The position numbers and the translations under genes were made by a program. Below are positions 9,646 to 47,685 of a stretch of DNA of 64,000 bases, piece after piece. Positions within the stretch are counted from its first letter, which is position 1. Each line of letters opens with the position of its first letter. This DNA is from an uncultured bacterium. GTDB taxonomy: Bacteria; Omnitrophota; Omnitrophia; Omnitrophales; Aquincolibacteriaceae. The notes beneath the pieces were generated by a model. It ran no database searches. It was not told where the DNA came from and worked only from the letters and a program-made list of their open reading frames with translations. The stretch is from contig CAYLPP010000005.1 of NCBI GenBank assembly GCA_964385615.1, positions 26,130-90,129 on the forward strand, in the 5' to 3' direction.

Positions 9646-9804
9646 TTAAAACTCCTTTGTTTTGAACGGGTAAAATATAACAAGCATGATTGCTGTTGGT
9701 TTTTCAGAATAGTACATTTGCCCTGGATGATCAACGTTTTTCTTTAACTCCTTATTATGAAGCAACTTAGGAGCTAATACGAATATAAAAATAAATAGCA
9801 ATAC

Positions 9805-9833
9805 TTGACTTTTTATAATAATAGTATTACATT
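9805..9833 (+). promoter_or_regulatory. Candidate sigma70-like promoter in the AT-rich region upstream of the HTH gene
   Basis: TTGACT at 9805-9810 with AT-rich downstream sequence (TATAAT-like hexamers at 9814-9828, spacing not ideal). SD-like AAGGACGAGG at 9884-9893, before ATG 9895. Confidence 0.25.
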
Positions 9834-9894
9834 TCTATCCAGATATATCAGATTAACTATCAACGATATAACAAAACTAATCAAGGACGAGGCC

Positions 9895-10107
9895 ATGGAA
9901 CAGCATAAATCAGAGCAGCCCAAAAGACCTGAACGTACGCAGATCATGACTCCAAAAGAAGCGGCCAAATATCTCGGTTTTCATTTGGTCACCATCTATC
10001 GCCTGCTGAAAAAACAGGAAATTCCCGCAACCAAGATCGGCGGTCAATGGCGCTTCAAGAAAGATGTTTTGGATGCCTGGCTGATGGACCGGATGAACAA
10101 GAAGTAA
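9895..10107 (+). CDS. Excisionase-family helix-turn-helix DNA-binding protein (HTH_17/AlpA-Xis-like)
   Basis: MTPKEAAKYLGFHLVTIYRLLKKQEIPATKIGGQWRFKKDVLDAWL is a canonical excisionase-type HTH. The start is taken at the Met with a good SD; the longer track ORF from 9805 lacks an RBS. Confidence 0.7.
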   Translation: MEQHKSEQPKRPERTQIMTPKEAAKYLGFHLVTIYRLLKKQEIPATKIGGQWRFKKDVLDAWLMDRMNKK

Positions 10108-10177
10108 TTCTCCGTCAGCTTAGTCAAAAAAACAAAACATTTTTCTCGAATCCGACTCATCTCGGAAAGGTTCCTTT

Positions 10178-10726
10178 ATGGATACCAAGGCGCTAGCCGT
10201 CCGTCCGCCTTCAGGCGTCGATGAAAAAAAGTGGTGCGCGACTCGTTGGTTCGCGGTTTACACGCGTTCCCGCCATGAAAAAATTGCCCAACGGGAGTTA
10301 AATAAAAAAGGCATTGAGACTTTTTTGCCTTTGCGCAAAGTTGTACGTCAATGGTCTGACCGCAAGAAAACTATCGAAGAACCCCTGTTTAAAGGTTATT
10401 TATTCGTTCATACGGCTCTTTCAGAACGCTGGACTGTGCTGAATTCAGTCGGCGTTGTCAGGTTTGTGACACAAGGCGCTGAACCCGCGGAAATTCCCGA
10501 AAAAGAGCTTTCCGCCATTCGTCTTTTTGTGGAAGAAAACATTCAAGTTGATCCATTCCCGTATCTCAAAGAAGGGGAACGGGTGTATGTGCGCTCCGGG
10601 CCGTTTAAAGGCGCGGAAGGTTTCGTAGTGCGTAAGGACAAGCATTGCCGTCTGATTATTTCACTCGATATGCTGATGCAGTCTGTGTCGGTGCTGATTG
10701 ATCAAGCGTGCGTTGAACCGGTCTGA
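10178..10726 (+). CDS. UpxY-family NusG-like transcription antiterminator (NGN + KOW)
   Basis: WFAVYTRSRHEKIAQRELNKKGIETFLPL and PLFKGYLFV form an NGN domain, and the C-terminal GERVYVRSGPFKGAEGFV is KOW-like. It sits at the head of the long co-directional glycan locus. Confidence 0.75.
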   Translation: MDTKALAVRPPSGVDEKKWCATRWFAVYTRSRHEKIAQRELNKKGIETFLPLRKVVRQWSDRKKTIEEPLFKGYLFVHTALSERWTVLNSVGVVRFVTQGAEPAEIPEKELSAIRLFVEENIQVDPFPYLKEGERVYVRSGPFKGAEGFVVRKDKHCRLIISLDMLMQSVSVLIDQACVEPV

Positions 10727-10812
10727 GTTTATGACCGCATAATTTCTAAGACCTTCGTAAGTCACGCCCTGTGACTGAGAGGGCGAAGCTGTGAGCAAGA
10801 GACCTCATTTCC

Positions 10813-11682
10813 TTGAAAAATAAAACACAAAATAGAGAAACTGCTGAAACGGTTATTGAAAGCCCTCAGCATTTCTTTTTGATTCCCTGGAGGGAAATCC
10901 TTCACTACAGGGATCTTCTATTTTTGTTTGTGCGCCGGGATTTTGTTTCGCGGTATAAGCAGACTATTTTGGGGCCTTTATGGTTCATCATTCAGCCCCT
11001 TGTGACGACTCTTGTCTTTACGATTGTTTTCGGACGTTTCACATCTATTTCCACCGGCCGGGTTCCGCAGGTGCTTTTTTATTTAAGCGGATTACTTGCT
11101 TGGGATTATTTCACGCTTTGTCTTTCAGGTACCGCGTATTGTTTAACTTCAAACATTCATTTATTTTCAAAAGTCTATTTCCCGCGCTTGATTGTTCCAA
11201 TTTCTCTTACGCTGTCGAATCTTCCCCGGTTAGGCCTCCAGCTTGTCATTTTTTCAGGGATTTATATTTACTGCGTAAAGCTGGGTGTGGTTCCCGTGTC
11301 TGTGCGTCCGACGGCTCTGATTTTTTTGCTGCCTGGACTTGTTTTTATGACGGCTCTGGCGGGATTAGGTCCTGGGCTTTGGGTTTCAGCGATGACGGTT
11401 AAATACCGCGATCTCCATCATCTGATTGGATTCTCAATTCAGCTTTGGATGTACGCAACGCCCGTGATTTACCCGCTGGAAACAGTTCCGGATTCCTGGA
11501 AATGGGTTCTTCTGCTCAACCCCATGACAGAGATACTCGAGTTGTACCGCCAGGCCTTTTTTGGAACCGGGGATGTCAGCTCCTTGGGTCTTGCGCTTTC
11601 CGGCGCAGTGATCACCGTTACGTTTTTAAGCGGACTGTATATGTTCAACCGGGTTCAGAGTACTTTTGTTGATACGATTTGA
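10813..11682 (+). CDS. wzm: ABC-2 type polysaccharide export permease (Wzm/TagG/KpsM-like)
   Basis: FVRRDFVSRYKQTILGPLWFIIQPL signature with six TM helices. Paralog of the C-terminal half of 29287..31032. Confidence 0.8.
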   Translation: MKNKTQNRETAETVIESPQHFFLIPWREILHYRDLLFLFVRRDFVSRYKQTILGPLWFIIQPLVTTLVFTIVFGRFTSISTGRVPQVLFYLSGLLAWDYFTLCLSGTAYCLTSNIHLFSKVYFPRLIVPISLTLSNLPRLGLQLVIFSGIYIYCVKLGVVPVSVRPTALIFLLPGLVFMTALAGLGPGLWVSAMTVKYRDLHHLIGFSIQLWMYATPVIYPLETVPDSWKWVLLLNPMTEILELYRQAFFGTGDVSSLGLALSGAVITVTFLSGLYMFNRVQSTFVDTI

Positions 11683-12866
11683 TGGCGGAGCCCTTAAAAT
11701 TCGTTTCAGATAAAACTCAGAAAATAGCGGAATTCGATGGGTTGAGAGGGATGGCGCTTTTAATGGTGGTGTTTCATCACTACAACCTTCATTCAAATTA
11801 CAGTTTGCCCATAAGTCAGTTTCTTCTCTCTGTCACAAATCTTTTTTCCATTGCCGTTGATTTCTTTTTTGCTTTATCAGGCTTTCTATTAACGAGAATT
11901 CTAATCGATCACCGCGAGTCCCCGAATCTTTTGAGGGTTTTTTTCATCCGCAGATTTTGCCGGATTGTTCCCGTTTATTATTTGCTGCTGATTTCCTATG
12001 CGCTTTTAATTCACACGAGTTTGGGTCGGATGGTTTTTTATCCCTCCGAGTTTTTGAAATGGGATCATTCCGTGAAATTTTACCTGTTATTTTTACAGAA
12101 TATTCCAATGGCCCTGCAGGGGTCTTTTATGCCGCCGTATTTGACGGTGACCTGGTCGTTGGCGGTTGAGGAACAGTTTTATCTTTTTCTCCCGTTTTTT
12201 ATTTTAATCGCCGGCTCAAAGAGACTTCCTTATGCTCTCGCGGGAATAATCACGGTTTCCGTTATTGCCCGGACGGCTATGATTGCTTTTAACCCATTTC
12301 ATTTTCCTAATCTTTGGTGGGCGGTTTATATTTCCCCTTTTTTAAGGATGGACACTCTTCTTTCAGGAGCCGTGGCCGCGGTTTTTACGCGGAAAGCAGG
12401 CTCGCTATCCTTTATTAGCAGAAATCAAAATTGGTTTTACGCTTATTTAGCCGGATTTTGGGCTTTGTTTTTTTTCTGGAGCTTCCGGCAGGATCAAATG
12501 ATTCTTTCCGTTGTGTCGACGGCTGGGTACTTCATTTTTTCCATAACGTCTTTTGTGATTATTTTATTAGTCGCTTCAGGGTCTTCGCCCGTCTGCGAAT
12601 TTCTGAGATTCCCGCTGTTCACGCATTTTGGCAAGTACTCTTACTTTATTTATCTTTTTCATATTCCAGCGCTGGGATTATTGCACGGACTGATTTTTCG
12701 GGTAAAAATTCCGCTAATCCAGGATTGGCCGACGATCGCGGTGACATTCCTTTCTTTTCTTATCGTATGGGCAGCCGCTCTTGTTTCGTGGAAACTGATC
12801 GAACGGCCGGCAATCCGTTTTGGGCATCGGTTCCAGTTTGAGCTGGGGAAGGCCGGTCTTTCGTGA
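11682..12866 (+). CDS. Acyltransferase family 3 membrane O-acyltransferase (OafA/YrhL-like)
   Basis: FDGLRGMALLMVVFHH N-terminal motif and about 10 TM helices. TGATG overlap with wzm. Confidence 0.75.
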   Translation: MAEPLKFVSDKTQKIAEFDGLRGMALLMVVFHHYNLHSNYSLPISQFLLSVTNLFSIAVDFFFALSGFLLTRILIDHRESPNLLRVFFIRRFCRIVPVYYLLLISYALLIHTSLGRMVFYPSEFLKWDHSVKFYLLFLQNIPMALQGSFMPPYLTVTWSLAVEEQFYLFLPFFILIAGSKRLPYALAGIITVSVIARTAMIAFNPFHFPNLWWAVYISPFLRMDTLLSGAVAAVFTRKAGSLSFISRNQNWFYAYLAGFWALFFFWSFRQDQMILSVVSTAGYFIFSITSFVIILLVASGSSPVCEFLRFPLFTHFGKYSYFIYLFHIPALGLLHGLIFRVKIPLIQDWPTIAVTFLSFLIVWAAALVSWKLIERPAIRFGHRFQFELGKAGLS

Positions 12867-14149
12867 AGCCCGTCGTTAAAGTTCAGAATGTTTCGAAGCT
12901 TTATTCAATCAAAGGAACTCAGACTAAAACTTTATCTGAGCTTTTTGGATGGAATCGCCGGCCTAGAACTTTCGCGCCTATTCAGCGTTCCGGGCAAATT
13001 GCTGAAGTTGGGCCTGAGCCCGGAACTTTTTGGGCGCTTAAAGATATTTCTTTTGAAGTTCAGCCGGGAGAAATTTTAGGAATTTTTGGAAAAAACGGGT
13101 CCGGAAAATCCACGTTGATGAAAATTCTTTCCCGCATTACGGCGCCGACTAAGGGCCGGGCTGTTTTGAAAGGACGCTTCATGTCTCTGCTTGAAGTCGG
13201 CACGGGATTTCATCCCGATTTGACCGGCCGCGAAAATATTTATCTCAACGCGGCCATTTTGGGGATGAGAAAATCAGAAGTGGATCTTAAGCTTGATGAA
13301 ATCATTGATTTTTCCCAGATTGGGTCATTTATCGATACGCCGGTTAAATTTTATTCCAGCGGGATGTATCTGAGGCTTGCCTTCAGCGTGGCGGCGCATC
13401 TTGAAACGGAAATTCTTATATTGGATGAAGTTTTATCCATTGGCGACCTCGATTTTCAGCAGAAATGCCTTCGGAGAATCCTGGATATTTCCCGCCAGGG
13501 GAAAACGATTATTTTTGTAAGCCACAGCATGCGGCATATTACCGACATTTGTTCGCGCGCCATCTATATATCCGGCGGTAAAGCCGCTGATGAAGGTGAT
13601 CCCGAAGATCTTGTTGAAAAGTATATTAGGGCGATTCAAAAAAACTCTACCGGCTCAACAGGCCCGATGGAGCATTTCACGCAATCCTCATTTTTCAAGA
13701 TTGAGAAAGCGGTAATTAAAAATTCGGATGGGGAAAATTCCGCGAATCTTTTATTTAAAGAACCCTTTACCGTTGATGTTGAGGTCAGCGTTTCTCAAAG
13801 TTTAAAAAATGTACGCATCGGCGCGGGTTTTGCCACCCTCAGCGAGACCTGGATCGGCCGGGTGCATCATCCTTCTGCCGAAAAGGAAAAACTCGATCTT
13901 GAGCCGGGCCGTTATCTGATTTCGTTTTCATTCTCAAATTGTTTATGGCCAGGTACGTATTACTTGGGGGTGGGGGCTCATCAAGCCGCGGATAAAGCAT
14001 CTGTGAGTCAAACCCTTGATTACATTCCAAGAGCCATGCGCTTTGCGGTTGAAGACATAGCGGGCAACTCCTCAATTCCTTCTCCGGCCCCGCATAATCA
14101 TGGGCTGGTTGCTTTGGAAGCTCAGAGCGGTTTAAAAAGGCTGAAATGA
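12863..14149 (+). CDS. wzt: Polysaccharide ABC exporter ATP-binding protein with a C-terminal carbohydrate-binding domain (Wzt/TagH-like)
   Basis: Walker A GKNGSGKST, signature YSSGM, Walker B ILILDE, and a roughly 170-aa C-terminal extension (…PGTYYLGVGAHQ…). GTGA overlap with the preceding gene. Confidence 0.85.
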   Translation: MKPVVKVQNVSKLYSIKGTQTKTLSELFGWNRRPRTFAPIQRSGQIAEVGPEPGTFWALKDISFEVQPGEILGIFGKNGSGKSTLMKILSRITAPTKGRAVLKGRFMSLLEVGTGFHPDLTGRENIYLNAAILGMRKSEVDLKLDEIIDFSQIGSFIDTPVKFYSSGMYLRLAFSVAAHLETEILILDEVLSIGDLDFQQKCLRRILDISRQGKTIIFVSHSMRHITDICSRAIYISGGKAADEGDPEDLVEKYIRAIQKNSTGSTGPMEHFTQSSFFKIEKAVIKNSDGENSANLLFKEPFTVDVEVSVSQSLKNVRIGAGFATLSETWIGRVHHPSAEKEKLDLEPGRYLISFSFSNCLWPGTYYLGVGAHQAADKASVSQTLDYIPRAMRFAVEDIAGNSSIPSPAPHNHGLVALEAQSGLKRLK

Positions 14150-14886
14150 GTTTGTTTTCCTTTTTTTCAAAGCAAAAAAAAACGGGGATTCAAAACGGCC
14201 GTTTTGAAAACTGGTTCCATGGCCTTTATGATCTCCCGGTAAAACTTCAATACACCGCCTGGCGTTACGGGCATTTAACGCACGATGAAATGCTCCTGCA
14301 GGTGGCCGCGCTGACACAATATTTAAAGCCTGGAAATGTTTTTGAGTTTGGAACTTTTGACGGGCGCACGACAGTAAATATTGCCTTAAACCTGGAAAAA
14401 AGCTCGAAGATTTACTCTCTGGATCTGCCTGACGATGTCTCTAGGGAGAATTTTCTGGAAAAAGAAAAAGATTATATGCAGCCCCAAATGACGAGGGCTC
14501 TTTTTTCTGAAAAGAAAATCGAATCTGAAGTCTTGAATAAAATCGAGCTTTTGCGCGCGGATTCAAAAGCTTTTGATTTTAGCCGCTTCTATACAAATAT
14601 CGATATGGTCCTCGTTGACGGCGGACATGACCGGATCACCGTAACGTCGGATTCCCTGAACGCTTTCCGGATGCTTCGGCCCGGAGGGGTTATTTTATGG
14701 GATGATTACAATGATTATTGGCCGGATGTTTTTGAGTTTATTAATAAGCTCTCGACCTTATTGCCGTTGTTGAGGGACGAGAGAACAGGGCTTGTGGCTT
14801 ATAAAAGTTCAAACGGCAAGAATATTGACTGGCGGGAAATAAATAAAATTCTAAAACCGGATGACCGGTTTCCGGAAAAATCATGA
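14146..14886 (+). CDS. Class I SAM-dependent methyltransferase (TylF/MycF-like O-methyltransferase fold)
   Basis: FEFGTFDGRTTVNIA and VLVDGGHD motifs. ATGA overlap with wzt. Confidence 0.65.
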   Translation: MSLFSFFSKQKKTGIQNGRFENWFHGLYDLPVKLQYTAWRYGHLTHDEMLLQVAALTQYLKPGNVFEFGTFDGRTTVNIALNLEKSSKIYSLDLPDDVSRENFLEKEKDYMQPQMTRALFSEKKIESEVLNKIELLRADSKAFDFSRFYTNIDMVLVDGGHDRITVTSDSLNAFRMLRPGGVILWDDYNDYWPDVFEFINKLSTLLPLLRDERTGLVAYKSSNGKNIDWREINKILKPDDRFPEKS

Positions 14887-15974
14887 AATCATCCAAGAGA
14901 AACATTTTGATTACCGGAGGATGCGGATTTGTGGGCCGGCATCTTCTCGCGAGGCTCAGCCGGGAAGCCGCGTCAGAGTTTTGGGTTGTGGATGACTTGA
15001 GCACGGGAAAACATCCTGAAACTTGGGAGTTTTTAAAATTATCCGCGATAACTTCCAAAAATTATCCCGGCGCAGAAACGTTTGAAATTTCGGGTACAAG
15101 TCACTCCTTGGTTTTTATCCGGGCGGACTTCATGTCAGTCACTTTGTCGGAATTAGGACGCCAGCCGGGTCTTGGAATTCCGCGGCTTCCTAAATTTGAT
15201 GAAATTTATCATTTGGCTTCGGTGGTCGGCGGGCGCGCTATGATCGACGGGGATCCGCTGATGGTCGGCATCGATTTAGGAATCGACGCCTGTTTTTTTC
15301 TCTGGGCTTCGAAAGTCAATAAGCCCGGGAGAATTTTATACGCCTCTTCCAGCGCGGCTTATCCCGTTTTCAGACAGACGGCGGATAAGGCACAGCCCCT
15401 GCGGGAAAGCGAAATTGATTTTTCAAAAGGTGTTTTCCAGCCGGACTACACCTACGGCTGGAGCAAGTTGACTGGGGAATATCTTGCCGGAATCGCCGCC
15501 GGAAAATATGGTTTAAAAGTAGCGGTGGTCCGGCCTTTTTCGGGATACGGTGAAGATCAGGACCTGACCTATCCGGTTCCCGCGATCGCGCTTCGTGTGG
15601 CCGCGCGGCAAAATCCGGTAAAAATATGGGGAAGCGGTGAGCAAAGCCGGGATTTTGTTTACATTGGAGATTGCGCGGAAGCCTGTGTCCGTGCCTGCCG
15701 AGGCATTGAGGACGGATCCGCGGTTAATATCGGCTCCGGGGTTTTGACATCTTTTAATCAGCTTGCAAGGCTGATGATGAAATTAGAAGGTTACCAGGGA
15801 AATATTCTCGGGGATGAAAACAAACCTGTCGGAGTTGCCAAGCGCTGCTGCGATCCAAAGCGGGTGCGGGAAAAACTTCAATGGGAGCCGGCTGTCACCC
15901 TGGAAGAAGGGATGGCGGGAGTTTTAAAAACGGCGCATCAGAGATTAAATTCGGGAATAAAAATTCCGGAATGA
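14883..15974 (+). CDS. NAD-dependent nucleotide-sugar epimerase/dehydratase (extended SDR)
   Basis: N-terminal ILITGGCGFVGRHL Rossmann motif and a YxxxK region (YGWSK). Confidence 0.7.
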   Translation: MKSSKRNILITGGCGFVGRHLLARLSREAASEFWVVDDLSTGKHPETWEFLKLSAITSKNYPGAETFEISGTSHSLVFIRADFMSVTLSELGRQPGLGIPRLPKFDEIYHLASVVGGRAMIDGDPLMVGIDLGIDACFFLWASKVNKPGRILYASSSAAYPVFRQTADKAQPLRESEIDFSKGVFQPDYTYGWSKLTGEYLAGIAAGKYGLKVAVVRPFSGYGEDQDLTYPVPAIALRVAARQNPVKIWGSGEQSRDFVYIGDCAEACVRACRGIEDGSAVNIGSGVLTSFNQLARLMMKLEGYQGNILGDENKPVGVAKRCCDPKRVREKLQWEPAVTLEEGMAGVLKTAHQRLNSGIKIPE

Positions 15975-17080
15975 TAAAAAAAGAAAAATCTTTCGCCGTT
16001 GTCACGACAACGATCCGTATTCCGGAACTCTTGAGACGTTACGCTCAAGATGCCCGTGATTTTAAACGGAAAATCGAGCAATTTGTGATTGCCGGGGATC
16101 GAAAAACCCCCGATGGTGTCCGTGATTTTTGCGCGCGGCTTTCTGAAGAATTTCAAATTCCTTTTGTTTATCTTTCCGCGCAGGATCAAGATAATTATTT
16201 AAAAACCCGGCCGCGGCTTAAAGAATTTCTTCCCTGGAATTGCATTCAGCGCCGGAATGCCGCCGTGCTTTACGCGTATGACAAAGGTGAAGCCGACATT
16301 ATCGTGACGCTGGATGATGATAATTTTATCTCCCATTCTGATTATTTCGGATGTCACGCCCATATCGGAGACGAGGATGAGGTTGAAGCTGTGAGCTCTT
16401 CGGCTGGATGGTGGAACATTTGTGAAATGCTGGAAGAGAGTAAGGGCCGGTATTTTTATCACAGGGGATACCCGCTTTCAAAACGCTGGCCAAGGGATGA
16501 AAAAATCAAAGTTCAAAAAATCCGGGCTTGCGCGGTGGTTAACGCCGGGCTCTGGCTTGATGATCCGGACGTGGATGCTCTGACCCGCTTGTCTTTTCCC
16601 GTCCGGGCTTCGCGCAGAAGCTCCCTTTTTAGAAACCGCGTAGCCTGCGCTCCGGGAACCTGGTCTCCGTTCAATTCACAAAATACAGCATTGGCCCGCG
16701 AAGTGATTCCGGCCTACTTTTTATTTCCGTATATCGGCCGGTATGATGATATTTGGGCGAGCTATGTCGTTCGGGCGATCGCGGATTATTTGGGAGACGT
16801 AGTGACTTATGGAACTCCGGTGGTCCGTCAAAAGCGTAACCCGCATGATTATTTTAAAGATTTTGACGACGAGCGTTTCGGTTTAACGCACAACGACGTT
16901 TTTTTGAAAGCGCTGACTGCCTGCCGGTTTCAAGGGAAAACGTACCGCGATTGTTTTGCCGAAATTGCCGAGCAGTTTCCCGCCCGGATCCATGAAGCTT
17001 GCAGGTCTTTAAAAAAAGACGCGGCGATTTTCGAGAAAGTCGTTGAAGCCATGAAAATTTGGAAAGAAACGTTTCGATGA
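15971..17080 (+). CDS. Reversibly-glycosylated-polypeptide (RGP/GT75) family protein, UDP-arabinopyranose mutase-like
   Basis: Blocks match plant RGP/UAM: VVTTTIR, TLDDDNF (DDD motif), HRGYPLS, GLWLDDPDVDALTRL, IGRYDDIWASYVVRAIADYLG. ATGA overlap with the SDR gene. The longer track ORF from 15881 runs through the SDR 3' end. Confidence 0.6.
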   Translation: MIKKEKSFAVVTTTIRIPELLRRYAQDARDFKRKIEQFVIAGDRKTPDGVRDFCARLSEEFQIPFVYLSAQDQDNYLKTRPRLKEFLPWNCIQRRNAAVLYAYDKGEADIIVTLDDDNFISHSDYFGCHAHIGDEDEVEAVSSSAGWWNICEMLEESKGRYFYHRGYPLSKRWPRDEKIKVQKIRACAVVNAGLWLDDPDVDALTRLSFPVRASRRSSLFRNRVACAPGTWSPFNSQNTALAREVIPAYFLFPYIGRYDDIWASYVVRAIADYLGDVVTYGTPVVRQKRNPHDYFKDFDDERFGLTHNDVFLKALTACRFQGKTYRDCFAEIAEQFPARIHEACRSLKKDAAIFEKVVEAMKIWKETFR

Positions 17081-17101
17081 AAAACATTTCCTTTTAAAAT
17101 C

Positions 17102-17995
17102 ATGAGAGAAATGCCTTTAATTTCCTTTGTCATTCCGACGTTTAACCGGGCGCTATTTCTTGAAATCGTGCTTAAGGATCTGATCGCGGAGCGCCGTCTT
17201 TATTATCCCAATATGGAAATTATCGTGGTCGACGGAGGTTCCAAAGACGGCACGGCGGAAATGCTTAAAAATTATGAGAGTGAATTATCTTGCTGGGTTT
17301 CAGAGCCGGATAAAGGGCCTGGAGACGCTTTCAAAAAAGGGATTCAGAAAGCGAAGGGGGATTTTATCCGCTACATGTCTGATGACGACCGCATTATTCC
17401 GGGGTGCACCCGGAAAATGATGGAAATCATGTTGAGCCGTCCGGATTTCGATATCGTGGGCGGGGGAGTTAAATCGGTGTATTTGTCCAAGTCGGGCGAA
17501 TTGATTCCTTGCCTGGATTTTACTCCGGCCGGAGATGTCGCTTTATCCAAAGCGGCCGCGCCTGATTTGAACGGTTTTATCGTGCCGGAAGCTTGTTTGT
17601 TTCGGAAGAAACTTTTCAGCGAAATCGGTTACTGGAAGCCGAACATGATGGCTTGTGACGCTGAGTTTTTTCTCCGGACTTTAAAAAAAGGCCGGAAAAT
17701 TTTTATGGCGGATGAAGTTTATCTCCATAAATATTGGCACGACGATTCCACGGTTCTCAAAAGATTGGGCCGTATGCGGACAAGCATCTTTGAAGCGATT
17801 GCTCAAAACGCGGGCGTTATACCGGCCTCAGCTTATTATTACCGCGTTGTGATCGGGCCATGGCTTGAACCCAAAAGAAAATGGATGAAGGAGCATATTT
17901 ACCGCCCGCTTTTGATTTTAGCGGCAAAACCGTTTCACAAGCTGGGACTCCATCCCGTGCGCTTTCTGGAACGTATCAAGAAAAAGCGCTCATGA
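17102..17995 (+). CDS. Glycosyltransferase family 2
   Basis: SFVIPTFNRALFL … VVDGGSKDGT … DDD. GT-A fold N-terminal signature. Confidence 0.8.
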   Translation: MREMPLISFVIPTFNRALFLEIVLKDLIAERRLYYPNMEIIVVDGGSKDGTAEMLKNYESELSCWVSEPDKGPGDAFKKGIQKAKGDFIRYMSDDDRIIPGCTRKMMEIMLSRPDFDIVGGGVKSVYLSKSGELIPCLDFTPAGDVALSKAAAPDLNGFIVPEACLFRKKLFSEIGYWKPNMMACDAEFFLRTLKKGRKIFMADEVYLHKYWHDDSTVLKRLGRMRTSIFEAIAQNAGVIPASAYYYRVVIGPWLEPKRKWMKEHIYRPLLILAAKPFHKLGLHPVRFLERIKKKRS

Positions 17996-18891
17996 GTCCG
18001 GGCTCCATCAAAATTTCGGCAGTGATCTGCACCCGCAACCGGAAAGATCCGCTGTTAAAGGCATTGGAACAGCTCCGGCGTCAGACTCTGCCTGAAGAGA
18101 GTTATGAAATCCTGGTCGTTGATAACGGTTCAACGGACGGCACCGCGCAGATGATTCAAAGCCGTTTCGCGGACGCCCGCAATTTGAGAATGGTTTTTGA
18201 ACCTCAAGCCGGACTTTCCCGTGCGCGAAACAGGGGGTGGCGTAATGCCCGCGCCGGCTATGTGGCTTATCTGGATGACGACGCGGAAGTTGAGCCGGCG
18301 TGGCTCGAAAATATTCTCAAGGCTTTTGAAAACTCCGGCGCCCAAGCCTCCTGCATCGGAGGACCTGTTGAAGTTGTGCTCGAAAGCCGGCCGGATTGGT
18401 TTAGTAATGAGCTTTTGTCCTGTTACGCCTCCCTAAATTGGGGGAGCCAGTCTTTTTATCTTTCCGAAAATCAGTGGCTGGTGGGCGCGAATATGGCTTT
18501 TCGCAAAGACGCGCTGGAGCGTATCGGCGGATTTTTGGAAGACCTGCGTTATTACGGCGACGAGACGTATGTTTTCCGGAGAATTTTTCAAACAGGCGGA
18601 AAAATATTTTATGAACCGTCCATGAAAGCCCGGCACCATATTTCGAATCTCCGGATTTCCCGGAAGTGGATTTTGAAAAAATGGTTTTGGGAAGGCGCAG
18701 CGCTTGCTTTTCTGGAGATTCACTTCAATGCCATTCCCGCGCGCGCGCGGTTCGATCTTTTCATAAAGCAAGTGCCCGGAGCTCTCAAGCTTTTGTTTAA
18801 AAATTGCCGGAATACCGGAAACTTTCACGAAAAAGCTCCGCTGTTTAAACAAACGGGATTTCTGGCGGGACTTGCGGGATACCGTCAATGA
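17992..18891 (+). CDS. Glycosyltransferase family 2
   Basis: ISAVICTRNRKDPL … ILVVDNGSTDGT … YLDDDAEV. The internal ATG 17992 overlaps the upstream stop (ATGA). Confidence 0.8.
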   Translation: MSPGSIKISAVICTRNRKDPLLKALEQLRRQTLPEESYEILVVDNGSTDGTAQMIQSRFADARNLRMVFEPQAGLSRARNRGWRNARAGYVAYLDDDAEVEPAWLENILKAFENSGAQASCIGGPVEVVLESRPDWFSNELLSCYASLNWGSQSFYLSENQWLVGANMAFRKDALERIGGFLEDLRYYGDETYVFRRIFQTGGKIFYEPSMKARHHISNLRISRKWILKKWFWEGAALAFLEIHFNAIPARARFDLFIKQVPGALKLLFKNCRNTGNFHEKAPLFKQTGFLAGLAGYRQ

Positions 18892-18904
18892 TAAAGCGGT
18901 TAGA

Positions 18905-20128
18905 ATGCGGATTCTGATCGTCACGGAATTGTTTCCGCCTCATTATTTCGGCGGAGCTGAAGTCTGCTGCGGAGAGATGGCTGAAATCCTGAAATCGCAG
19001 GGCCACGATGTTCATGTTTTAACAAGCCGTCCGCCTTCGGGCTTAGCCGAGAAAAACGAAGCGGTGAACCGGGTTTTGATCCGGTCGTTTCCCTGGAGGC
19101 GTTATCCGGAAAACAGCTCACAGTTAAAAGAAATGTTTTTGAGAGAAATAACCAATCAAAGTATTTTTAAACAGGCTGTTCGCCGCCTTCGCCCGGACTG
19201 CGTTTATTTCTGGAAGCTGGACACAATATCGCTTTCCCTCCCTCAAGTTTTGGACCGCAGGGTGAAAGCCGTTCACTTTGTTTTTGACACATTCTCTTTT
19301 GAGTGGTGGCTGGATGCCTGGCGTCTTTTTTGGGCTAAAAAGCCGGTTCTCGTTCACAATCGGTTATTTAAAAAAATTTTAAAGCGGATTCTGAATCTTT
19401 TGGGTTTCGCAATTCCCGAAAACCCGTATGAATTTAGAAACGCGCATTTTGCCAGCCAGTTTTTGAGAGATGGAAACCCTACCCGGATTTTAAATCCCGA
19501 AAACACGCGCGTCATTCATTGGGGGGTAAATCTCGGCCGTTTTTATCCGGCACCCGCTTCTGGAAATGAATGCCGAATTTTATACACGGGCAGAATTATT
19601 GAGCACAAAGGGATCGATACAGCGGTCAACGCTTTCAAGAAAGTTGCCGCTGTTCATCCGGAATGCACACTCACGATTGTAGGTGCGAATGATGACCCTC
19701 CGTATGAAAAAGGCCTGCGTCAATGGGTTCAGCGGGAAGGGTTGGAAGAAAAAATCGTTTTTAAGGGTTTTATCGACCGGCGCGGGCTGGCTGAAATTTA
19801 CAGAGAGCACGGTATTTTTATTTTTCCGTCTTTGGTTGAAGAGGGGTTTGGAATGACTCTTTTGGAAGCGATGGCTTCAGGCCTCGCGGTTGTAACTAGC
19901 GCTCAGGGGGGGAGTTTGGAAATTGGGAACGGGGAAACCGACTGTCTTTTTTTTGAAAAAGCAAACGCGGATGCCTGCGCGAAGCAAGTTCTTCGCCTCC
20001 TAAATGATCGGGCATTTTGTTCCAGGGTTCGAGCGGAGGCTCGAAAGACTGTCGAAGCAAAATTTAGCAGTATCAAGCTGGAGCAAACGGTTCAGGAAGC
20101 TTTTGAAGCTTTGAGCTCACGCGGATGA
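18905..20128 (+). CDS. Glycosyltransferase family 4 (GT-B)
   Basis: MRILIVTELFPP N-terminus. The C-terminal EGFGMTLLEAMASG motif gives the E-x7-E donor-binding site. Confidence 0.8.
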   Translation: MRILIVTELFPPHYFGGAEVCCGEMAEILKSQGHDVHVLTSRPPSGLAEKNEAVNRVLIRSFPWRRYPENSSQLKEMFLREITNQSIFKQAVRRLRPDCVYFWKLDTISLSLPQVLDRRVKAVHFVFDTFSFEWWLDAWRLFWAKKPVLVHNRLFKKILKRILNLLGFAIPENPYEFRNAHFASQFLRDGNPTRILNPENTRVIHWGVNLGRFYPAPASGNECRILYTGRIIEHKGIDTAVNAFKKVAAVHPECTLTIVGANDDPPYEKGLRQWVQREGLEEKIVFKGFIDRRGLAEIYREHGIFIFPSLVEEGFGMTLLEAMASGLAVVTSAQGGSLEIGNGETDCLFFEKANADACAKQVLRLLNDRAFCSRVRAEARKTVEAKFSSIKLEQTVQEAFEALSSRG

Positions 20129-21303
20129 AAATTCTGGTAGTTACTAATTTGTATCCGCCGATTTTCCTGGGTGGTTACGAGTTAGCTTGCCAGGAGGTTT
20201 GTTCTTTTATGCGGTCAAGAGGGCATCAAGTCTCTATTTTAACCAGTTCCTGGAATGTTCCGGCCTCTTTAAAAGAAGAAGATGTCCAAAGACGGTTAAA
20301 ATTTCGGCTTTGGTTTGAGCCGTCCGCCTCAAGATTAAAAAAATGGGCCGGATATTTTTTCAACCGCCGAATCTTTCAAAAGGTTTTAAAAGAAAAAAAG
20401 CCTGATCTGATTATCGCTTTTTCTCTTTCAACCCTGGGAGGGCTGCTGATTGACGCTTTACACCGTCAGCCGGTTCCCGTGGTTCACGAGATCGGGGATA
20501 CGGCATTGGCTGATGAATACAAAATTCACCCCTGGTTTGTTCTCTGGGCCAGGTCAGAATTTTTAAGTCACGCTTTTTCAAATTTATTCGGTTTTAAAAA
20601 ACCCGAATTGAATCTTCGGCGGTCTTATTTTCGAAGCGCGTATTTAAAAAATTTTTTTTCTGAAAAAAATTTTGAAGTTTTATCCGCTCCGGTTTTTCAT
20701 CATGGAATCCGCCGTTTTGAAAAACGGCCGTTTTCTGAAAAACTTCGAGGTGTTCTGTATCTTGGGCGGATAAGCCCTGAAAAAGGCATTCATGTTTTTT
20801 TTAAAGCTCTTGAACAGGTTAAAAACGCGTCTTGCCTGAAAGGAGTGCCGATTACCATCGCGGGCGGTGCTGTTAATAAGGAATATGAAGCCGGCCTGAT
20901 GAAGCAGGCTGAAAATTTAAAAGGGCGGCTGGACATTCGTTTCACCGGACATTTAGAGAAAGATAAAGCTATTGAAGTTTTGAGGCAGCATGACATTCTT
21001 GTTTTTCCATCGACCTGGGATGAGCCTTTCGGTCTCGCACCTCTGGAAGCGGCGGCTAATGGGCTCGCTGTCATTACAACGGCTACCGGCGGAGCGGGGG
21101 AAGTGATTCAGAATGAAATTAATGGTCTGCATGTGCGGCGGGAAGATCCAGAGGCGATCGCTCAGGCGCTGATTCGTCTCGCGGAGGATGGGGATTTGCG
21201 TAACCGGTTAATGGAAGCGGCTTATCGCCGCGCGGAGAGTTTTAATTGGGAATCAAGCATGGAGAAAGTGGAAGCGCATCTTTTGAAAGCGGCTGGTTTC
21301 TAA
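20125..21303 (+). CDS. Glycosyltransferase family 4 (GT-B)
   Basis: MKILVVTNLYPP … EPFGLAPLEAAANGLAVI. ATGA overlap with the preceding gene. Confidence 0.8.
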   Translation: MKILVVTNLYPPIFLGGYELACQEVCSFMRSRGHQVSILTSSWNVPASLKEEDVQRRLKFRLWFEPSASRLKKWAGYFFNRRIFQKVLKEKKPDLIIAFSLSTLGGLLIDALHRQPVPVVHEIGDTALADEYKIHPWFVLWARSEFLSHAFSNLFGFKKPELNLRRSYFRSAYLKNFFSEKNFEVLSAPVFHHGIRRFEKRPFSEKLRGVLYLGRISPEKGIHVFFKALEQVKNASCLKGVPITIAGGAVNKEYEAGLMKQAENLKGRLDIRFTGHLEKDKAIEVLRQHDILVFPSTWDEPFGLAPLEAAANGLAVITTATGGAGEVIQNEINGLHVRREDPEAIAQALIRLAEDGDLRNRLMEAAYRRAESFNWESSMEKVEAHLLKAAGF

Positions 21304-22569
21304 ATGGCGGGAGGGAAGAAAAAGGCTGTTATATTTTTTCCTTATAATCCCCACCCTTTTGCCAGCGGAAATCAAAAGCGGGTTTTAGAGATAATTAAGG
21401 CGCTTTCTTCAAAAAGGTTTGAGGTTTATTTCCTGAGCGCGGATTTTTTTGGGCAATCCTGGAATGAAGCGGGGTGCAAAAGTCTTGAAGAAATGGGTGT
21501 GAAGGTTTCGGTTTATCCGATGTCAGCCTGGGAGAGAAAGTGGGTCCATTGGGTGCTTCAGCGTTACAACAAGGATGAAAAGCTTATTTTACGTACGTTT
21601 CATTTGAAGCCGCCTTTCATGAAACGGTGGTTTTTAAGAAAAGTTTTGGAAATTCAGCCTGAAGCCATTTGGGTGCATTACGCCTATTGGGGAGATTTCT
21701 TGAAAAAAGTTCCCGCAAGCATGGTTAGAACTATAGAAAGCAATGATCTCATTTCAACCAGCGACTGGCTTAGGCGGAGGCTGGAGGTTTTTATCCCGCC
21801 GGGCGGAAAAATCAGACGGGAAAATTTTGAAAGTATGCCCGATTTTCTCTGGGATGAAAAATATTGGGAGAGTCAGGCCGGCCGGACGGATCCCTATGAA
21901 TTTAAAATTTATGATAACGCTGACTGCACAGTGGCTATTTCTAAGGCGGAAGCAGAAATGATCCGGCGGAATACCTCCAGGACGCGGGTTGTTTATGTGC
22001 CGCATTACCAGCCCGCGGTCTCCATTGAAAACCGCTATGAAGGCCCGGCGCTTTTCCCTTCCGGAAACCATGTGTTTAATTTTCACGGCTATTTTTATTT
22101 TATTAAGAAAGTATGGCCTCTGATTCGGCAAGCTCAGCCCGATTTTAAAGTTCAAATGACCGGAAATGCCCGCGATCTGTTTTTTGACGAAGATGGAATC
22201 GAGAAGCTCGGTTTTCTCCCGGATCTTCAAAAGCTGTACGCGGAAAGCTGTTTTGCCGTTTGCCCGATTATTTCCGGAACAGGTCAATCTCTGAAGATTG
22301 TTGAAGCGATGGCGCACGGGCTTCCGGCCGTCGCGACCCGGTTTACCGCCGTGAATTCTCCGATTGTTCATGGAGAGAATGGATTTATAGCTGAGGACGC
22401 GGAAACTTTTTCAGAATATTGTGTCCGTTTATGGAAAGACCGGGATTTATGCCGGAAAATGGGAGAGGCTGCCCGCCGGACGATTCAGGATGAATATAAG
22501 AAGTGGAATTATGAAAGCAAAATCGAGGAAATTATTTCTCCTCGCGCGGGAAAGGCGGAGAGAAGTTGA
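21304..22569 (+). CDS. Glycosyltransferase, GT-B fold (GT4-like)
   Basis: The C-terminal GQSLKIVEAMAHGLPAV is a GT4-like donor-binding helix. Confidence 0.6.
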   Translation: MAGGKKKAVIFFPYNPHPFASGNQKRVLEIIKALSSKRFEVYFLSADFFGQSWNEAGCKSLEEMGVKVSVYPMSAWERKWVHWVLQRYNKDEKLILRTFHLKPPFMKRWFLRKVLEIQPEAIWVHYAYWGDFLKKVPASMVRTIESNDLISTSDWLRRRLEVFIPPGGKIRRENFESMPDFLWDEKYWESQAGRTDPYEFKIYDNADCTVAISKAEAEMIRRNTSRTRVVYVPHYQPAVSIENRYEGPALFPSGNHVFNFHGYFYFIKKVWPLIRQAQPDFKVQMTGNARDLFFDEDGIEKLGFLPDLQKLYAESCFAVCPIISGTGQSLKIVEAMAHGLPAVATRFTAVNSPIVHGENGFIAEDAETFSEYCVRLWKDRDLCRKMGEAARRTIQDEYKKWNYESKIEEIISPRAGKAERS

Positions 22570-23714
22570 TGGAAGGCATGAATTATCATCTTGCCGTGAT
22601 CGCTGAAGACGGCCGCTCTTGGGCTGGCGGAGAGGTTTACCTTCGAAATATGATAACGGCGCTGAAGGTTTCAAAAAATGGAAAAAAAGCAAAGATTACG
22701 GTTTTATATTTCCCCGGCCGGACACTCGAACAAATTCAAAGAAGTTACCCTGAGGCGGATGCTTTTATCGAAATGCCCGGCGGGCGGGGAGTTATCAATT
22801 TTTTAAGGAAAATCAAACTGAACTTCTGCAAACTTAAAACCGTGAACGCGGTCATGGGAACTTTCCGGCCGGAATTTTTTAAAAAAATTCCCTTTTTGTG
22901 CTGGATCCCAGATTTACAGTATGTCAGCATGCCTGAGCTTTTTTCGAATTCGGAACGAATCCGTCAGCATGAACTTAATCGGAGCCGGGTTCAAAGCGCC
23001 CATATGATTACGGTGACGAGCCGGACGGTTCTCGATGATATGCGGGGTTGCTTCCCGGAAGGTGTTTTGAAAACGAGACTTTTGGAGCCGGTAAATCTGG
23101 TTCCTGAAACCGTTTATGAGCAGGACCCGGCTGAAATAGCCCAAAAATACGGACTTCCTGAGAAATTTTTTCATATGCCGAACCAGTTTTGGGCGCATAA
23201 AAATCATGAAATGGTTTTGGAAGCCCTTTCTCTTCTTAAAAAAGATCATCCGGATATTTGCGTTGTCTGCACCGGCCGGCCGTACGAATTCCGGGATCCT
23301 GCTTTTTTTAACCGTCTCTTGACTCAGGTTTCGCTTAAGGGTGTAAGATCACAATTTGTGCTTTTGGGTCATATCCCGGGAAAAGATATGTTCGCGCTCA
23401 TGCGCCAGTCTATCGCTCTTCTTCAGCCGTCGCTTTTTGAAGGCTGGAGTAATTCCGTTGAAGAGGCCAGAACTTTAGGGAAAACCGCTATTGTTTCGGA
23501 TTTACCCGTGCATCGGGAGAAAAAAATTCCGGGAGCTGTTTTTTTTGATCCGAAAAACGCAAAACAGCTGGCGGATATTTTGAAAGAGCTTCATTTGAAG
23601 AAAAAATTCGGACCCGACCTAAGTATGGAAAAGCAAGCCCGCGCGGAGCTTCCGGAGCGGATTGAGGTTTTTTCGGAAAAATTTATGGGAATTTTAAATG
23701 AAATCAAAAAATAA
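22566..23714 (+). CDS. Glycosyltransferase family 4 (GT-B)
   Basis: EGWSNSVEEARTLGKTAI C-terminal motif. ATGATG overlap with the preceding gene. Confidence 0.7.
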   Translation: MMEGMNYHLAVIAEDGRSWAGGEVYLRNMITALKVSKNGKKAKITVLYFPGRTLEQIQRSYPEADAFIEMPGGRGVINFLRKIKLNFCKLKTVNAVMGTFRPEFFKKIPFLCWIPDLQYVSMPELFSNSERIRQHELNRSRVQSAHMITVTSRTVLDDMRGCFPEGVLKTRLLEPVNLVPETVYEQDPAEIAQKYGLPEKFFHMPNQFWAHKNHEMVLEALSLLKKDHPDICVVCTGRPYEFRDPAFFNRLLTQVSLKGVRSQFVLLGHIPGKDMFALMRQSIALLQPSLFEGWSNSVEEARTLGKTAIVSDLPVHREKKIPGAVFFDPKNAKQLADILKELHLKKKFGPDLSMEKQARAELPERIEVFSEKFMGILNEIKK

Positions 23715-25014
23715 AGAACGGGTCTACATTCTTGGCGGCGGAGTCACCGGTTTGGCCGCGGGGATTGCTTCCGGCGTCAAAGTTTTTGAAAAAACCGCTT
23801 CGCCGGGCGGAATCTGCTCCTCGTATTACGTAAGAAAAGGTTCAAAGAAAAGGCTTCCCGAACCGCCGAAGAACGCGGAAGCTTACCGGTTTGAAATCGG
23901 CGGAGGGCACTGGATTTTCGGCTGTGACGGTGAAACCGCGAAATTCCTTTCCCGGTTCTGCAGTTTTAAGAAATACAGCCGGCGTTCGTCGGTTTTCTTT
24001 TCCCGAAATAAAATCCGGCTTCCTTACCCGCTCCAGGAACACGCGGAGCTTCTCGGGAAACCGGTTTTCGAAAAGATTCTTCGTGAAAAGAAAAGAGGTT
24101 TTCATCGGAAAATCAGAACCATGGCGGATTGGCTGGAAGCTTCTTTCGGAAAAACTCTTTGTAAGCTTTTCTTTTTCCCTTTTCATGAAAAATACACGGA
24201 TGGGCTTTACCGGAAAATTGCTCCGCAAGACGCTTATAAGTCGCCTCGATTGGGAAGAGCTAATCAGGCAAAGAAAAAACCCGCCGGCTACAACCCCGAT
24301 TATTTTTACCCTTCCAAAGGTTTAGGGTATTTGTGCGCGGGACTGGCTTCCGGATGCCGGATTGGATACGGGAAAAAGGCGGTGCGTATTGATTCTAAGA
24401 AAAGAATCGTTTGGTTCTCAGACGGCACAAAAATTTCTTATGACAGGCTTGTTTCAACCCTGCCGTTGAACCGTATGCTGGAACTGACAGGGCTTAAAAC
24501 CGGAGAAAAACCCGCGCCTTTTACTTCTGTTCTGGTTTTAAATATTGGAGCTGAACGGGGAGTTTCCTGCCCTCCGGATCACTGGCTCTATGTGCCGGAT
24601 ACAAAGTCCGGATTCAGCCGCGTTGGTTTTTATAGTAACGTCGATACCGGGTTTTTACCGCTTTCGGCAAGAGTGAAAAAAAATCGGACCAGCATTTATG
24701 TGGAGAAAGCTTTCGCAAACGGGCGGAAACCTTCAGAAGCGGAAATAAAACGGTATTCAGCTGAAGCCGTGCGCGAACTTCAATCATGGGGCTGGATTGG
24801 TAAAACGGAAGTTGTGGATCCGACATGGATTGACGTGGCTTACACCTGGTCTTATCCGGATTCCGGCTGGACGAAAAAAGCAATTGATGTCTTGGAGCGG
24901 CGGGACATTCATCCGCTTGGCCGTTACGGCCGCTGGCATTTTCAGGGGATCGCGCAATCTATTCGGGACGGTCTTGAAGCTGGGCGTGTGTTGAAGGGAA
25001 GGAAGAATGCCTAA
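23698..25014 (+). CDS. NAD(P)/FAD-dependent oxidoreductase (amine-oxidase/UDP-galactopyranose-mutase-like fold)
   Basis: N-terminal YILGGGVTGLAAG dinucleotide-binding motif and FEKTASPGGICSSY. Function uncertain. Confidence 0.5.
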   Translation: MKSKNKERVYILGGGVTGLAAGIASGVKVFEKTASPGGICSSYYVRKGSKKRLPEPPKNAEAYRFEIGGGHWIFGCDGETAKFLSRFCSFKKYSRRSSVFFSRNKIRLPYPLQEHAELLGKPVFEKILREKKRGFHRKIRTMADWLEASFGKTLCKLFFFPFHEKYTDGLYRKIAPQDAYKSPRLGRANQAKKKPAGYNPDYFYPSKGLGYLCAGLASGCRIGYGKKAVRIDSKKRIVWFSDGTKISYDRLVSTLPLNRMLELTGLKTGEKPAPFTSVLVLNIGAERGVSCPPDHWLYVPDTKSGFSRVGFYSNVDTGFLPLSARVKKNRTSIYVEKAFANGRKPSEAEIKRYSAEAVRELQSWGWIGKTEVVDPTWIDVAYTWSYPDSGWTKKAIDVLERRDIHPLGRYGRWHFQGIAQSIRDGLEAGRVLKGRKNA

Positions 25015-34183: not shown

Positions 34184-34186
34184 CCG

Positions 34187-38127: not shown

Positions 38128-38190
38128 AAAGAAGGACTATTTGATTAGGCTTTTCGAGCCGATATACAGAGTTTACAAGGCGGATTTTTC

Positions 38191-40777: not shown

Positions 40778-41325
40778 TGCTGAAAGAAACCGTGAAAACG
40801 TTATTCCGTTTCCTGATCTGGGCGGCTTATGCCTCTTACAAAATCGAAGGGGTTAACGCCCTCCTTCTATTAATGCCGGCCAAATTGATTGTTCCCACGC
40901 TTAGGAAATACGGCGCGGTGATCGGAGACGGCACCGTGATTCATTCTCCTTTAATCATTCATAATGCCGGTACTGATTACCGCAACCTTACTATTGGCAG
41001 TCATTCTTATTTCGGCCGTGCCGTGTTTCTTGACCTTAAAGACAAGATTTCGATTCAGGACAATGTGACGGTTTCGATGCGCGTGACTCTTCTGACTCAC
41101 ACCGACGCGGGTGACAGTGATGTTAAAACGGCGCTTCCTGTGTCTCAAGCGCCGGTGAGGATTGATTCCGGTTCTTATGTCGGCGCCAGTGCCACTATCC
41201 TTCAGGGAGTTCATATGCATGAGGGTTCCGCGGTCGGCGCGGGCAGTGTGGTGCTTCATGATGTGCCCGCTAAGACCATTGTCGCGGGGAATCCTGCCAA
41301 AACAATCAAAACACTTGATGCCTGA
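40777..41325 (+). CDS. Left-handed beta-helix (hexapeptide-repeat) sugar N-acetyltransferase (PglD/WbpD-like)
   Basis: Tandem hexapeptide repeats IGDGTVIHSPLII … IDSGSYVGASATI … VGAGSVV. TGATG overlap with the preceding gene. Confidence 0.7.
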   Translation: MLKETVKTLFRFLIWAAYASYKIEGVNALLLLMPAKLIVPTLRKYGAVIGDGTVIHSPLIIHNAGTDYRNLTIGSHSYFGRAVFLDLKDKISIQDNVTVSMRVTLLTHTDAGDSDVKTALPVSQAPVRIDSGSYVGASATILQGVHMHEGSAVGAGSVVLHDVPAKTIVAGNPAKTIKTLDA

Positions 41326-45958: not shown

Positions 45959-45962
45959 AGAT

Positions 45963-47681: not shown

Positions 47682-47685
47682 GCTC

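Follow-up and report, generated by a model that had tools for sequence, protein, structure and literature searches.

The 64-kb stretch of DNA analysed here (hereafter the window) derives from an uncultivated Omnitrophota bacterium, and its positions 9671-10812 hold what appears to be the control region of a very long glycan operon. This head comprises an AT-rich intergenic stretch, a gene for a small helix-turn-helix (HTH) protein of the HTH_17 type, a gene for a UpxY-family paralog of NusG, and a short leader in which a hairpin and an ops-like sequence are encoded (Table 1). With moderate confidence, we interpret the locus as the control region of an O-antigen/capsule-type, ABC-exporter glycan operon, built from two separable modules: the HTH protein with its promoter, and the UpxY-like protein with its ops-like site. 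Broadly, capsules, O-antigens, toxins and antibiotics are among the products under the control of specialised NusG paralogs, and Omnitrophota are ultra-small, uncultivated organisms whose surface glycans probably mediate host attachment; to our knowledge, the loading sites of such paralogs are known experimentally only for RfaH, LoaP and, since 2024, the UpxY proteins of Bacteroides.

The map of open reading frames (ORFs) and Pfam agree with an earlier reading of this DNA, made by a model from the letters and an ORF list (the sequence-only reading), which had described a 46-kb co-directional locus behind the leader. Every ORF from 10813 to 56882 lies on the plus strand, mostly overlapping or abutting its neighbours, and gaps of more than 50 nt occur only at 38128-38190 and 48403-48493. 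Besides the exporter genes at its head, the products recognised by Pfam include about 20 glycosyltransferases, epimerases, DegT, Bac_transf and a CapD-like enzyme. One operon gene (15881-17080) matches the reversibly glycosylated polypeptide (RGP) family PF03214, which is mostly known from plants. Upstream, the conspicuous AT-rich non-coding stretch that the same reading had placed before the HTH gene proves to be the G+C minimum of the window; the next-lowest stretch in a 200-nt scan of the 64 kb has 32% G+C. It sits between the minus-strand gene 9151-9645 and the HTH gene.

Table 1. Features at the head of the glycan operon (positions in the window)
Feature	Position	Strand	Description
Divergent gene	9151-9645	-	164 aa; signal-peptide-like N-terminus; syntenic in most Omnitrophota loci
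Lowest-G+C 200-nt stretch	9671-9870		Non-coding; 27% G+C against a window mean of 47.8%
Putative divergent promoter	9706..9735	-	TTGATC-17-TATTCT, for the 9151-9645 gene
AT-rich block	9784..9804	+	TATAAAAATAAATAGCAATAC; immediately 5' of the -35; at least 80% conserved in 22 HTH promoters
Sigma-70-type promoter	9805..9833	+	-35 TTGACT (9805-9810), 17-nt spacer, -10 TACATT (9828-9833)
HTH_17 gene	9895..10107	+	Excisionase/MerR-like winged helix; ATG 9895, stop 10105-10107; 70 aa
Long RNA hairpin	10058..10147	+	Spans the HTH stop codon and the HTH-UpxY spacer; 18-nt inverted repeat, 89% complementary
UpxY-family specialised NusG paralog	10178..10726	+	182 aa; NGN plus KOW; 70 nt past the HTH gene
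Leader	10727-10812	+	86 nt, from paralog stop to Wzm start
Two-tier candidate pause hairpin	10752..10783	+	Outer CCTTC/GAGGG (10752-10756 / 10779-10783); inner GTCAC/GTGAC (10761-10765 / 10771-10775)
Ops-like core	10770..10793	+	24 nt, TGTGACTGAGAGGGCGAAGCTGTG; contains the GCGAAGC mini-hairpin (10783-10789)
Target glycan operon	10813..56882	+	About 46 kb; about 40 co-directional biosynthesis/export genes (ORF map, Pfam)
Wzm	10813-11682	+	Pfam; followed by an acyltransferase gene
Wzt	12863-14149	+	Pfam

The NusG paralog belongs to the UpxY family, as the sequence-only reading had proposed. It scores 153.9 bits on the UpxY profile NF033644 (cut-off 100), and stays below the cut-offs of RfaH (TIGR01955, 91.3 against 144.5; NF006534, 73.2 against 124), LoaP (NF033641, 77.6 against 125) and housekeeping NusG (TIGR00922, 43 against 135.7). 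The NGN domain is matched by Pfam NusG at 85.4 bits, and the KOW domain at 17.7 bits, under its gathering cut-off of 22.3. The 679 homologs found at E ≤1e-5 include named ones described as “UpxY family transcription antiterminator” from Candidatus Omnitrophica. Identity with Escherichia coli RfaH amounts to 25% over residues 24-170, in keeping with the NGN plus KOW architecture; a family-invariant TRSRHEK stretch and residues K43/K44 align to a helix region of RfaH which we take to be the one contacting ops, and this placement lends weak but consistent support to ops recognition by the paralog. Its gene takes the 5' position typical of UpxY, as the second of the unit and directly before the genes for Wzm, the acyltransferase, Wzt and the glycosyltransferases. 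The gene downstream of it encodes an ABC-2 permease, and no match to the UpxZ model was found by Pfam at the head of the locus.

The leader has the 86 nt given by the sequence-only reading, and the small inverted repeat reported within it exists, at 10761-10775 rather than 10760-10774. This repeat is the inner tier of a hairpin that folds at -15.2 kcal/mol (z -1.96); the same two-tier form comes out as the minimum-energy fold for 19 of 22 leaders from Omnitrophota. In an alignment of 20 leaders, 82.5% of the cells are paired, a share that falls to 39-52% once the partners are slid, and the stem covaries, with one pair alternating between A-U (8), C-G (6) and G-U (2). The series CCyTCGTAGGTCAC-loop-GTGACTGAGAGGGCGAAGCTGTG is conserved after the paralog stop in Omnitrophota, with a loop that differs in sequence and length, and the 24-nt core is invariant in these leaders and present as one exact copy in the window. 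The same reading had found no RfaH-type ops in the leader. The exact sequence GGCGGTAG is indeed absent, but a close relative is there: in place of the RfaH ops 12-mer GGCGGTAGnnTG, the leader has GGCGAAGCTGTG, which contains GCGAAGC and shares 8 of 12 positions with the ops of E. coli (GGCGGTAGCGTG) in the same register. The arrangement known as opsX, a leader hairpin region followed by GCGNAGC at a pause, is likewise recognised, at sequence level, at 10752-10793, downstream of upxY. A polymerase pause is predicted with T10792 as -1 and G10793 as +1; this register reads G-11 G-10 ... T-3 G-2 T-1 G+1, presumably a full match to the elemental pause consensus, with GCGAAGC inside the pause context. 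The 3' arm of the hairpin would then end at about -10, and the TGTGACTGA block would fall in the upstream duplex, from -23 to -15. Searched against Rfam, the leader has no match up to E = 10, and the gathering score of a family is not attained anywhere in the window.

The element is also found far from Omnitrophota. A metagenome scan with the pattern ACTGANNGGGCGAAGCTRT, which encodes no protein, matched at least 120 loci, and the counts that follow hold among the matches listed. The consensus drawn from 146 distinct contexts is TGKRACTGAnnGGGCGAAGCTRTR; conservation ends abruptly at both borders, and positions left free in the pattern are still conserved (T in 88%, G in 94%, K, then G/A before; a purine after). 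A UpxY-family gene lies just downstream in 42 of 122 instances, ends just upstream in 13 and occurs elsewhere in the fetched DNA in 4, so that 59 are linked to such a gene; in 27 no such gene is present although 800 nt or more could be inspected on either side, and 36 fragments are too short to judge. Ten orphan copies examined precede Poly_export genes (two), a UDP-glucose dehydrogenase, a CapD-like enzyme, two sigma-54 activators and a few unrelated genes; the orphan elements of loci L123 (1841 and 5212, 3.4 kb apart) and L127 (3489) precede sigma-54 enhancer-binding regulators. Furthermore, the 3' half GTnACTGAnnGGGCGAAGCTrTr stands 50-170 nt past the UpxY-family genes of Pedobacter, Mucilaginibacter and other Sphingobacteriales. 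A variant with GCGGAGC instead of GCGAAGC follows UpxY genes at L016 (4540-4590), L023 (about 4651), L031, L068 and L084, that is, in two Omnitrophota-grouped loci lacking the HTH gene (L016, L023) and in some Bacteroidota; it fits the GCGNAGC rule. These data are evidence that one ops-like sequence is common to the UpxY-family systems of several phyla. A universal upstream hairpin was considered as a defining part of the element and rejected, being strong in Omnitrophota (19 of 22) and modest across phyla.

The first gene of the unit was described by the sequence-only reading as coding for a 70-aa excisionase-family HTH protein, and both PF12728 HTH_17 (65.5 bits) and TIGR01764 “excise” (63.8 bits, cut-off 28.8) recognise it as such. 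Its AlphaFold2 model (mean predicted local distance difference test score, pLDDT, 83.5) has its best Foldseek matches, all with weak E-values, in RdfS, BldC, the N-domain of SoxR/MerR, RacA and Xis, with template modelling (TM) scores of 0.57-0.70; against 6ama and 6amk the TM score is 0.57-0.74. A sequence search of the PDB with the protein gave zero matches, and PADLOC returned a weak, domain-level mad1 match for it and none for the NusG paralog. Residues 14-63 are almost invariant across Omnitrophota, and the gene is the most conserved of its neighbourhood: the median identity to the window protein is 91%, against 73.5% for the phosphoribosyltransferase, 67.5% for the UpxY paralog and 53.6% for SpoU. 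It has the attributes of a BldC-like stand-alone regulator, namely a winged helix of about 60-70 aa, chromosomal and without integrase linkage; from those of an excisionase it has the HTH_17/excise domain and lacks the context of an integrative element (integrase, att sites). BldC is a small MerR/Xis-like regulator and RdfS an excisionase that also activates transcription; regulators like BldC bind cooperatively to AT-rich repeats in their target promoters.

The DNA before the HTH gene offers candidate sites for such binding. The upstream DNA of 22 orthologous or paralogous HTH genes, duplicated copies included, was aligned, and shows a conserved block TATAAAAATnnATAGCAATaCTTGAC, then TTGAC, a 17-nt spacer with TTTATA, the -10 as TAnnnT, and a conserved AG about 7 nt past it. 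TTGAC, the spacing and TAnnnT are conserved across the 22, and transcription is likely to start near A9841. The -35 is flanked by an inverted repeat, made up of TATAAA in the AT-rich block and TTTATA within the spacer. Both the block TATAAAAATAAATAGCAATAC and the motif ATAGCAATACTTGAC occur only once in the window. The block is a candidate HTH operator and/or UP element, and sites of BldC-like binding may be sought at 9784-9822. At locus L217 the ATAGCAAT motif recurs, inverted, 5' of an HTH gene in an unrelated context, where that gene adjoins one for an unrelated 183-aa protein.

In long contigs these genes lie in a fixed neighbourhood: GDPD (minus strand), SpoU methylase, phosphoribosyltransferase, a minus-strand gene of about 160 aa, HTH_17, the NusG paralog and a variable glycan locus, with Wzm/Wzt in some cases and a fused ABC exporter in others. 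In a survey with one genome per species, the HTH gene directly precedes the paralog in about 19 non-redundant Omnitrophota loci, which are all those with upstream DNA except L016 and L023; conservation of the pair at the head of glycan loci, which the sequence-only reading had put forward as a check, is thus borne out. The HTH gene was seen in 0 of about 60 loci of Terriglobia, Calditrichota and Bacteroidota. The HTH gene and the UpxY-ops pair are separable, because the former heads units without NusG and the latter occurs without the HTH gene. Several genomes have a second HTH copy which, behind the same type of promoter, heads a DegT aminotransferase unit with neither NusG nor ops-like element. 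Such a promoter-HTH cassette with DegT stands immediately upstream of the main HTH-NusG unit in L207 (7900-9502), L209 (7418-8869) and L213 (1201-2664), and the second unit of L218 holds DegT plus a TylF methyltransferase. At the main site of L218 (6350-6960) and of L219, promoter and HTH gene are kept and the ABC exporter follows directly, with no paralog and no recognisable element; we count the joint absence of UpxY and element in L218, where HTH and promoter persist, in favour of two modules. A possible degenerate remnant of the element, GGTCAGAGAGCGGGCGGGG, is seen in L218 and L219. In L211 an HTH relative with 75% identity directly precedes an initiating sugar transferase (Bac_transf). 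The reverse case is given by L016 and L023, which lack the HTH gene but contain the paralog together with a variant element, GGGCGGAGC.

Taken together, the HTH protein looks like a promoter-level regulator and not like an antiterminator partner; we would give about an even chance to its being a small autoregulated transcription factor of its own promoter, with UpxY and ops as a separate elongation module whose two parts are kept or lost together. Transcription would start near 9841, and the HTH and UpxY-like proteins would be made. The HTH protein would most likely bind the conserved block around the -35 (TATAAAAAT..ATAGCAAT / TTTATA), autoregulating or activating the promoter, an action modelled here on small MerR/Xis-like regulators such as BldC. 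The polymerase, once past the HTH gene and upxY, would meet the hairpin and pause region at 10752-10793 and would pause at about T10792. There, the paralog would dock through its NGN domain on the exposed non-template GCGAAGC hairpin and on the upstream duplex TGTGACTGA, displacing NusG, and the modified polymerase would read the 46-kb operon without premature termination. As the site lies behind the gene of the factor, synthesis of the factor would be independent of its own action.

Several points weigh against this two-module reading. Terminator-like sites within the operon show no excess over shuffled sequence, so that the need for antitermination is presumed; because such hairpins are at chance level, the termination to be suppressed would presumably be Rho-dependent or pause-driven. 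The ops-like site is downstream of upxY, whereas that of Bacteroides is upstream, so that the logic of the two systems is not identical. The match found by a consensus scan for the promoter is by itself not above chance, and the promoter call is supported by its conservation across loci instead; the conserved AT-rich block could equally be a plain UP element. Nearest-neighbour DNA folding of GGGCGAAGCTGTG predicts no structure, with a model that omits 2-bp mini-hairpins with sheared G-A, and the stability ascribed to the GCGAAGC hairpin is taken from the literature. At L024 HTH and UpxY are present and the canonical element is absent. An upstream stem anchored on GKRAC is only modestly enriched across phyla, at 42% against about 24% in shifted controls (146 contexts, among the matches listed). 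In many soil lineages part of the conservation of the element may reflect translation signals, since its last three bases coincide with the upxY start codon there.

This last point bears on the rival explanation that survives best, although we hold it to be unlikely: that the leader element acts as RNA, either as a structured leader recognised by KOW or as a ribosome-binding and start region, and not as non-template DNA. The leader hairpin was indeed predicted as RNA, and G-U wobbles are frequent in its stem (5 of 20 sequences at several pairs). In 24 of the 42 loci where the element precedes upxY, among the matches listed, its last three bases (ATG/GTG) are the first in-frame start codon of upxY, with GAGGG 8 nt upstream, at Shine-Dalgarno distance; the lineages concerned come from soil and have 50-60% G+C, and in L097 (3868-3890), for example, among the metagenome loci L087-L206, putative loading site, ribosome-binding site and start codon overlap. 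Against a role as RNA, the 24 nt of Omnitrophota and Sphingobacteriales are not followed by upxY and stand at 2 to about 60 nt from the next start codon, the invariant part stays unpaired in the predicted RNA structure, its borders are sharp, and its register is that of the non-template DNA hairpins of ops and opsX and of the elemental pause. Besides, the DNA mode has been demonstrated experimentally in Bacteroides (PMC11685472).

Two bolder readings, which we regard as quite unlikely, go beyond the separable modules: the HTH_17 protein may be a third, hitherto undescribed component of NusG-paralog control, which would bind the promoter and hand UpxY to the polymerase or gate its loading at the ops-like site, or the 24-nt element may represent the ops that was ancestral to the UpxY family as a whole, in all its phyla. 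If the first were true, one small protein would couple initiation and processive elongation of the giant glycan operons of Omnitrophota; if the second, regulons would become predictable in uncultivated lineages.

Closely related, and in our view distinctly improbable, is a functional partnership of the HTH protein with UpxY, as a UpxZ-like antagonist or as a loading or specificity factor at the ops-like site in a three-part antitermination system. About 19 Omnitrophota genomes have the two genes side by side and presumably co-transcribed, and the higher median identity of the HTH protein than of UpxY suggests several constrained interfaces. Nonetheless, the same promoter with a copy of the HTH gene is found at the head of units that have neither NusG nor ops, UpxY-ops pairs exist without it in L016, L023 and every non-Omnitrophota locus sampled, and the ops-like core is identical in phyla without such an HTH protein. 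A Pfam scan of the protein gave only HTH_17 and a weak HTH_23, with no match to the UpxZ model, and its fold is that of a DNA-binding winged helix. The proposal of the sequence-only reading, which saw the HTH protein in the place of UpxZ as a partner, is therefore not supported, and the UpxZ analogue was rejected as a candidate. The literature consulted, which left most papers of subscription journals outside the search, contained nothing linking UpxY/NusG with an excisionase-type HTH, Omnitrophota or GGGCGAAGCT.

The annotation itself suggests that the HTH protein could be the excisionase (recombination directionality factor) of an integrated mobile element, with its adjacency to NusG being accidental, and the sequence-only reading had named a nearby integrase or att site as what would speak for this. 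The match to TIGR01764 and the top fold match, the RdfS excisionase, agree with it; furthermore, in L212 (1240-1540) an HTH_17 relative with 67% identity stands beside a tRNA gene, after which about 46 nt of the tRNA 3' end recur as a direct repeat; this is att-like, and more distant relatives of the protein may be genuine excisionases. For this locus the idea is very improbable and can be set aside because no tRNA gene is present in the 64-kb window, the flanking genes (M17 peptidase, RsmB, thymidylate synthase, DHFR) are of the housekeeping type and include no integrase, and synteny is fixed, with the same chromosomal site and gene order across genomes whose neighbour proteins are only 50-75% identical; the HTH promoter is conserved as well. 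An invertible, phase-variable switch like those of Bacteroides capsule loci has next to no probability, since the imperfect 20-nt inverted repeat flanking the -35 (75% complementary) has AT-rich arms of low complementarity lying 15 nt apart inside the promoter rather than bracketing it, no recombinase gene is found nearby (ORF list, Pfam, flanking-gene annotation), and the promoter has the same orientation in 22 of 22 loci.

Other features of the region accompany the two modules. A 136-nt region (10045-10180) in which the last HTH codons pair with the spacer folds at -40.3 kcal/mol (z -3.5); this stop-codon hairpin is lineage-specific, being kept in the closest relatives with no consistent stable fold in orthologous loci across the phylum, and the alignment of Omnitrophota loci shows no conservation in the HTH-UpxY spacer. 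The product of the divergent gene reaches 44.8 bits on TIGR04073 (exosortase-associated), below its cut-off of 50. Its putative promoter was assigned from the consensus, and AGAATAnTAyATTT and TCAAT blocks are conserved there in the upstream alignment of 19 Omnitrophota loci. Between the divergent promoters, a TAAC-N(16-20)-GTTA inverted repeat at 9746-9769 recurs in most orthologous loci. In some of them its inner bases are also complementary (TAACCCC...GGGGTTA in L020, TAACTC...GAGTTA in L013), and it may serve as an operator or form a small hairpin.

Nothing established is overturned by these observations, and specialists gain a testable consensus together with a small protein whose extreme conservation calls for an explanation. 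The combination of a UpxY-type factor and an opsX-like site that has the identical GCGAAGC mini-hairpin extends to Omnitrophota, and the 24-nt sequence marks polysaccharide operon leaders in Sphingobacteriales and many soil lineages, which makes it a testable consensus for UpxY regulons beyond Bacteroides. What is new with respect to the known UpxY systems is the phylum-wide HTH_17 module and the evidence for one ops-like sequence common to UpxY-family systems of several phyla. The HTH_17 protein, phylum-wide and invariant, is a candidate dedicated regulator of glycan operons, and a case where the “excisionase-family” annotation misleads.

Among described systems, the nearest to the elongation module is that of Bacteroides fragilis, where control of capsule operons by UpxY and UpxZ was reportedly described by Chatzidaki-Livanis et al. 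in 2009. In both cases the polysaccharide operon carries, at its 5' end, the gene of its own UpxY-family NusG paralog, and the leader has a hairpin-encoding region and a GCGNAGC mini-hairpin in a pause context. The recruitment sites of B. fragilis UpxY proteins span about 40 bp of the operon leader. In each of them, a region encoding a pause hairpin and a stretch of upstream duplex DNA are combined with a non-template mini-hairpin, YGCGNAGCR, which occupies about -11 to +1 relative to a consensus-like pause (Saba et al., 2024; PMC11685472). The sequence of opsE is CTGCGAAGCATA, and GCGGTAGC is part of the ops of E. coli (PMC11685472); GCGNAGC and GCGNNAGC are classic extraordinarily stable mini-hairpin DNAs (PMC13037366). 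The GCGAAGC core of the window is identical to that of opsE, and its hairpin 3' arm would end at about -10, as in the class-1 sites of Bacteroides. The window differs in having no UpxZ and no invertible promoter, in the HTH_17 gene before upxY, and in the site lying after upxY rather than before it; also, there is one locus per window, and apparently per genome, compared with eight competing loci in B. fragilis, and the upstream half TGKRACTGA is conserved across phyla here, whereas Bacteroides sites diverge, giving specificity.

With RfaH and ops (JUMPstart) of E. coli the locus shares a specialised NusG paralog, long polysaccharide operons and a non-template hairpin at a paused polymerase, where loading is here predicted from sequence. 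The paralog scores under the RfaH cut-offs, the hairpin is GCGNAGC instead of the GCGGTAGC of ops, the factor is encoded in cis while RfaH is a lone gene, and the element, with its 24 nt plus hairpin, is longer. LoaP of Bacillus and TaA of Myxococcus are likewise NusG paralogs adjoining very long biosynthetic operons; their targets are polyketide clusters, the paralog described here scores under the LoaP cut-off, and LoaP has been proposed to read an RNA hairpin. For the promoter module, the closest counterparts are BldC of Streptomyces and RdfS, which are likewise winged-helix proteins of the HTH_17 type, of about 70 aa and with no effector domain. The HTH protein is only 21-24% identical to them, and we know of no link to NusG paralogs described for either; as with BldC, it is chromosomal and heads operons as a transcription factor would.

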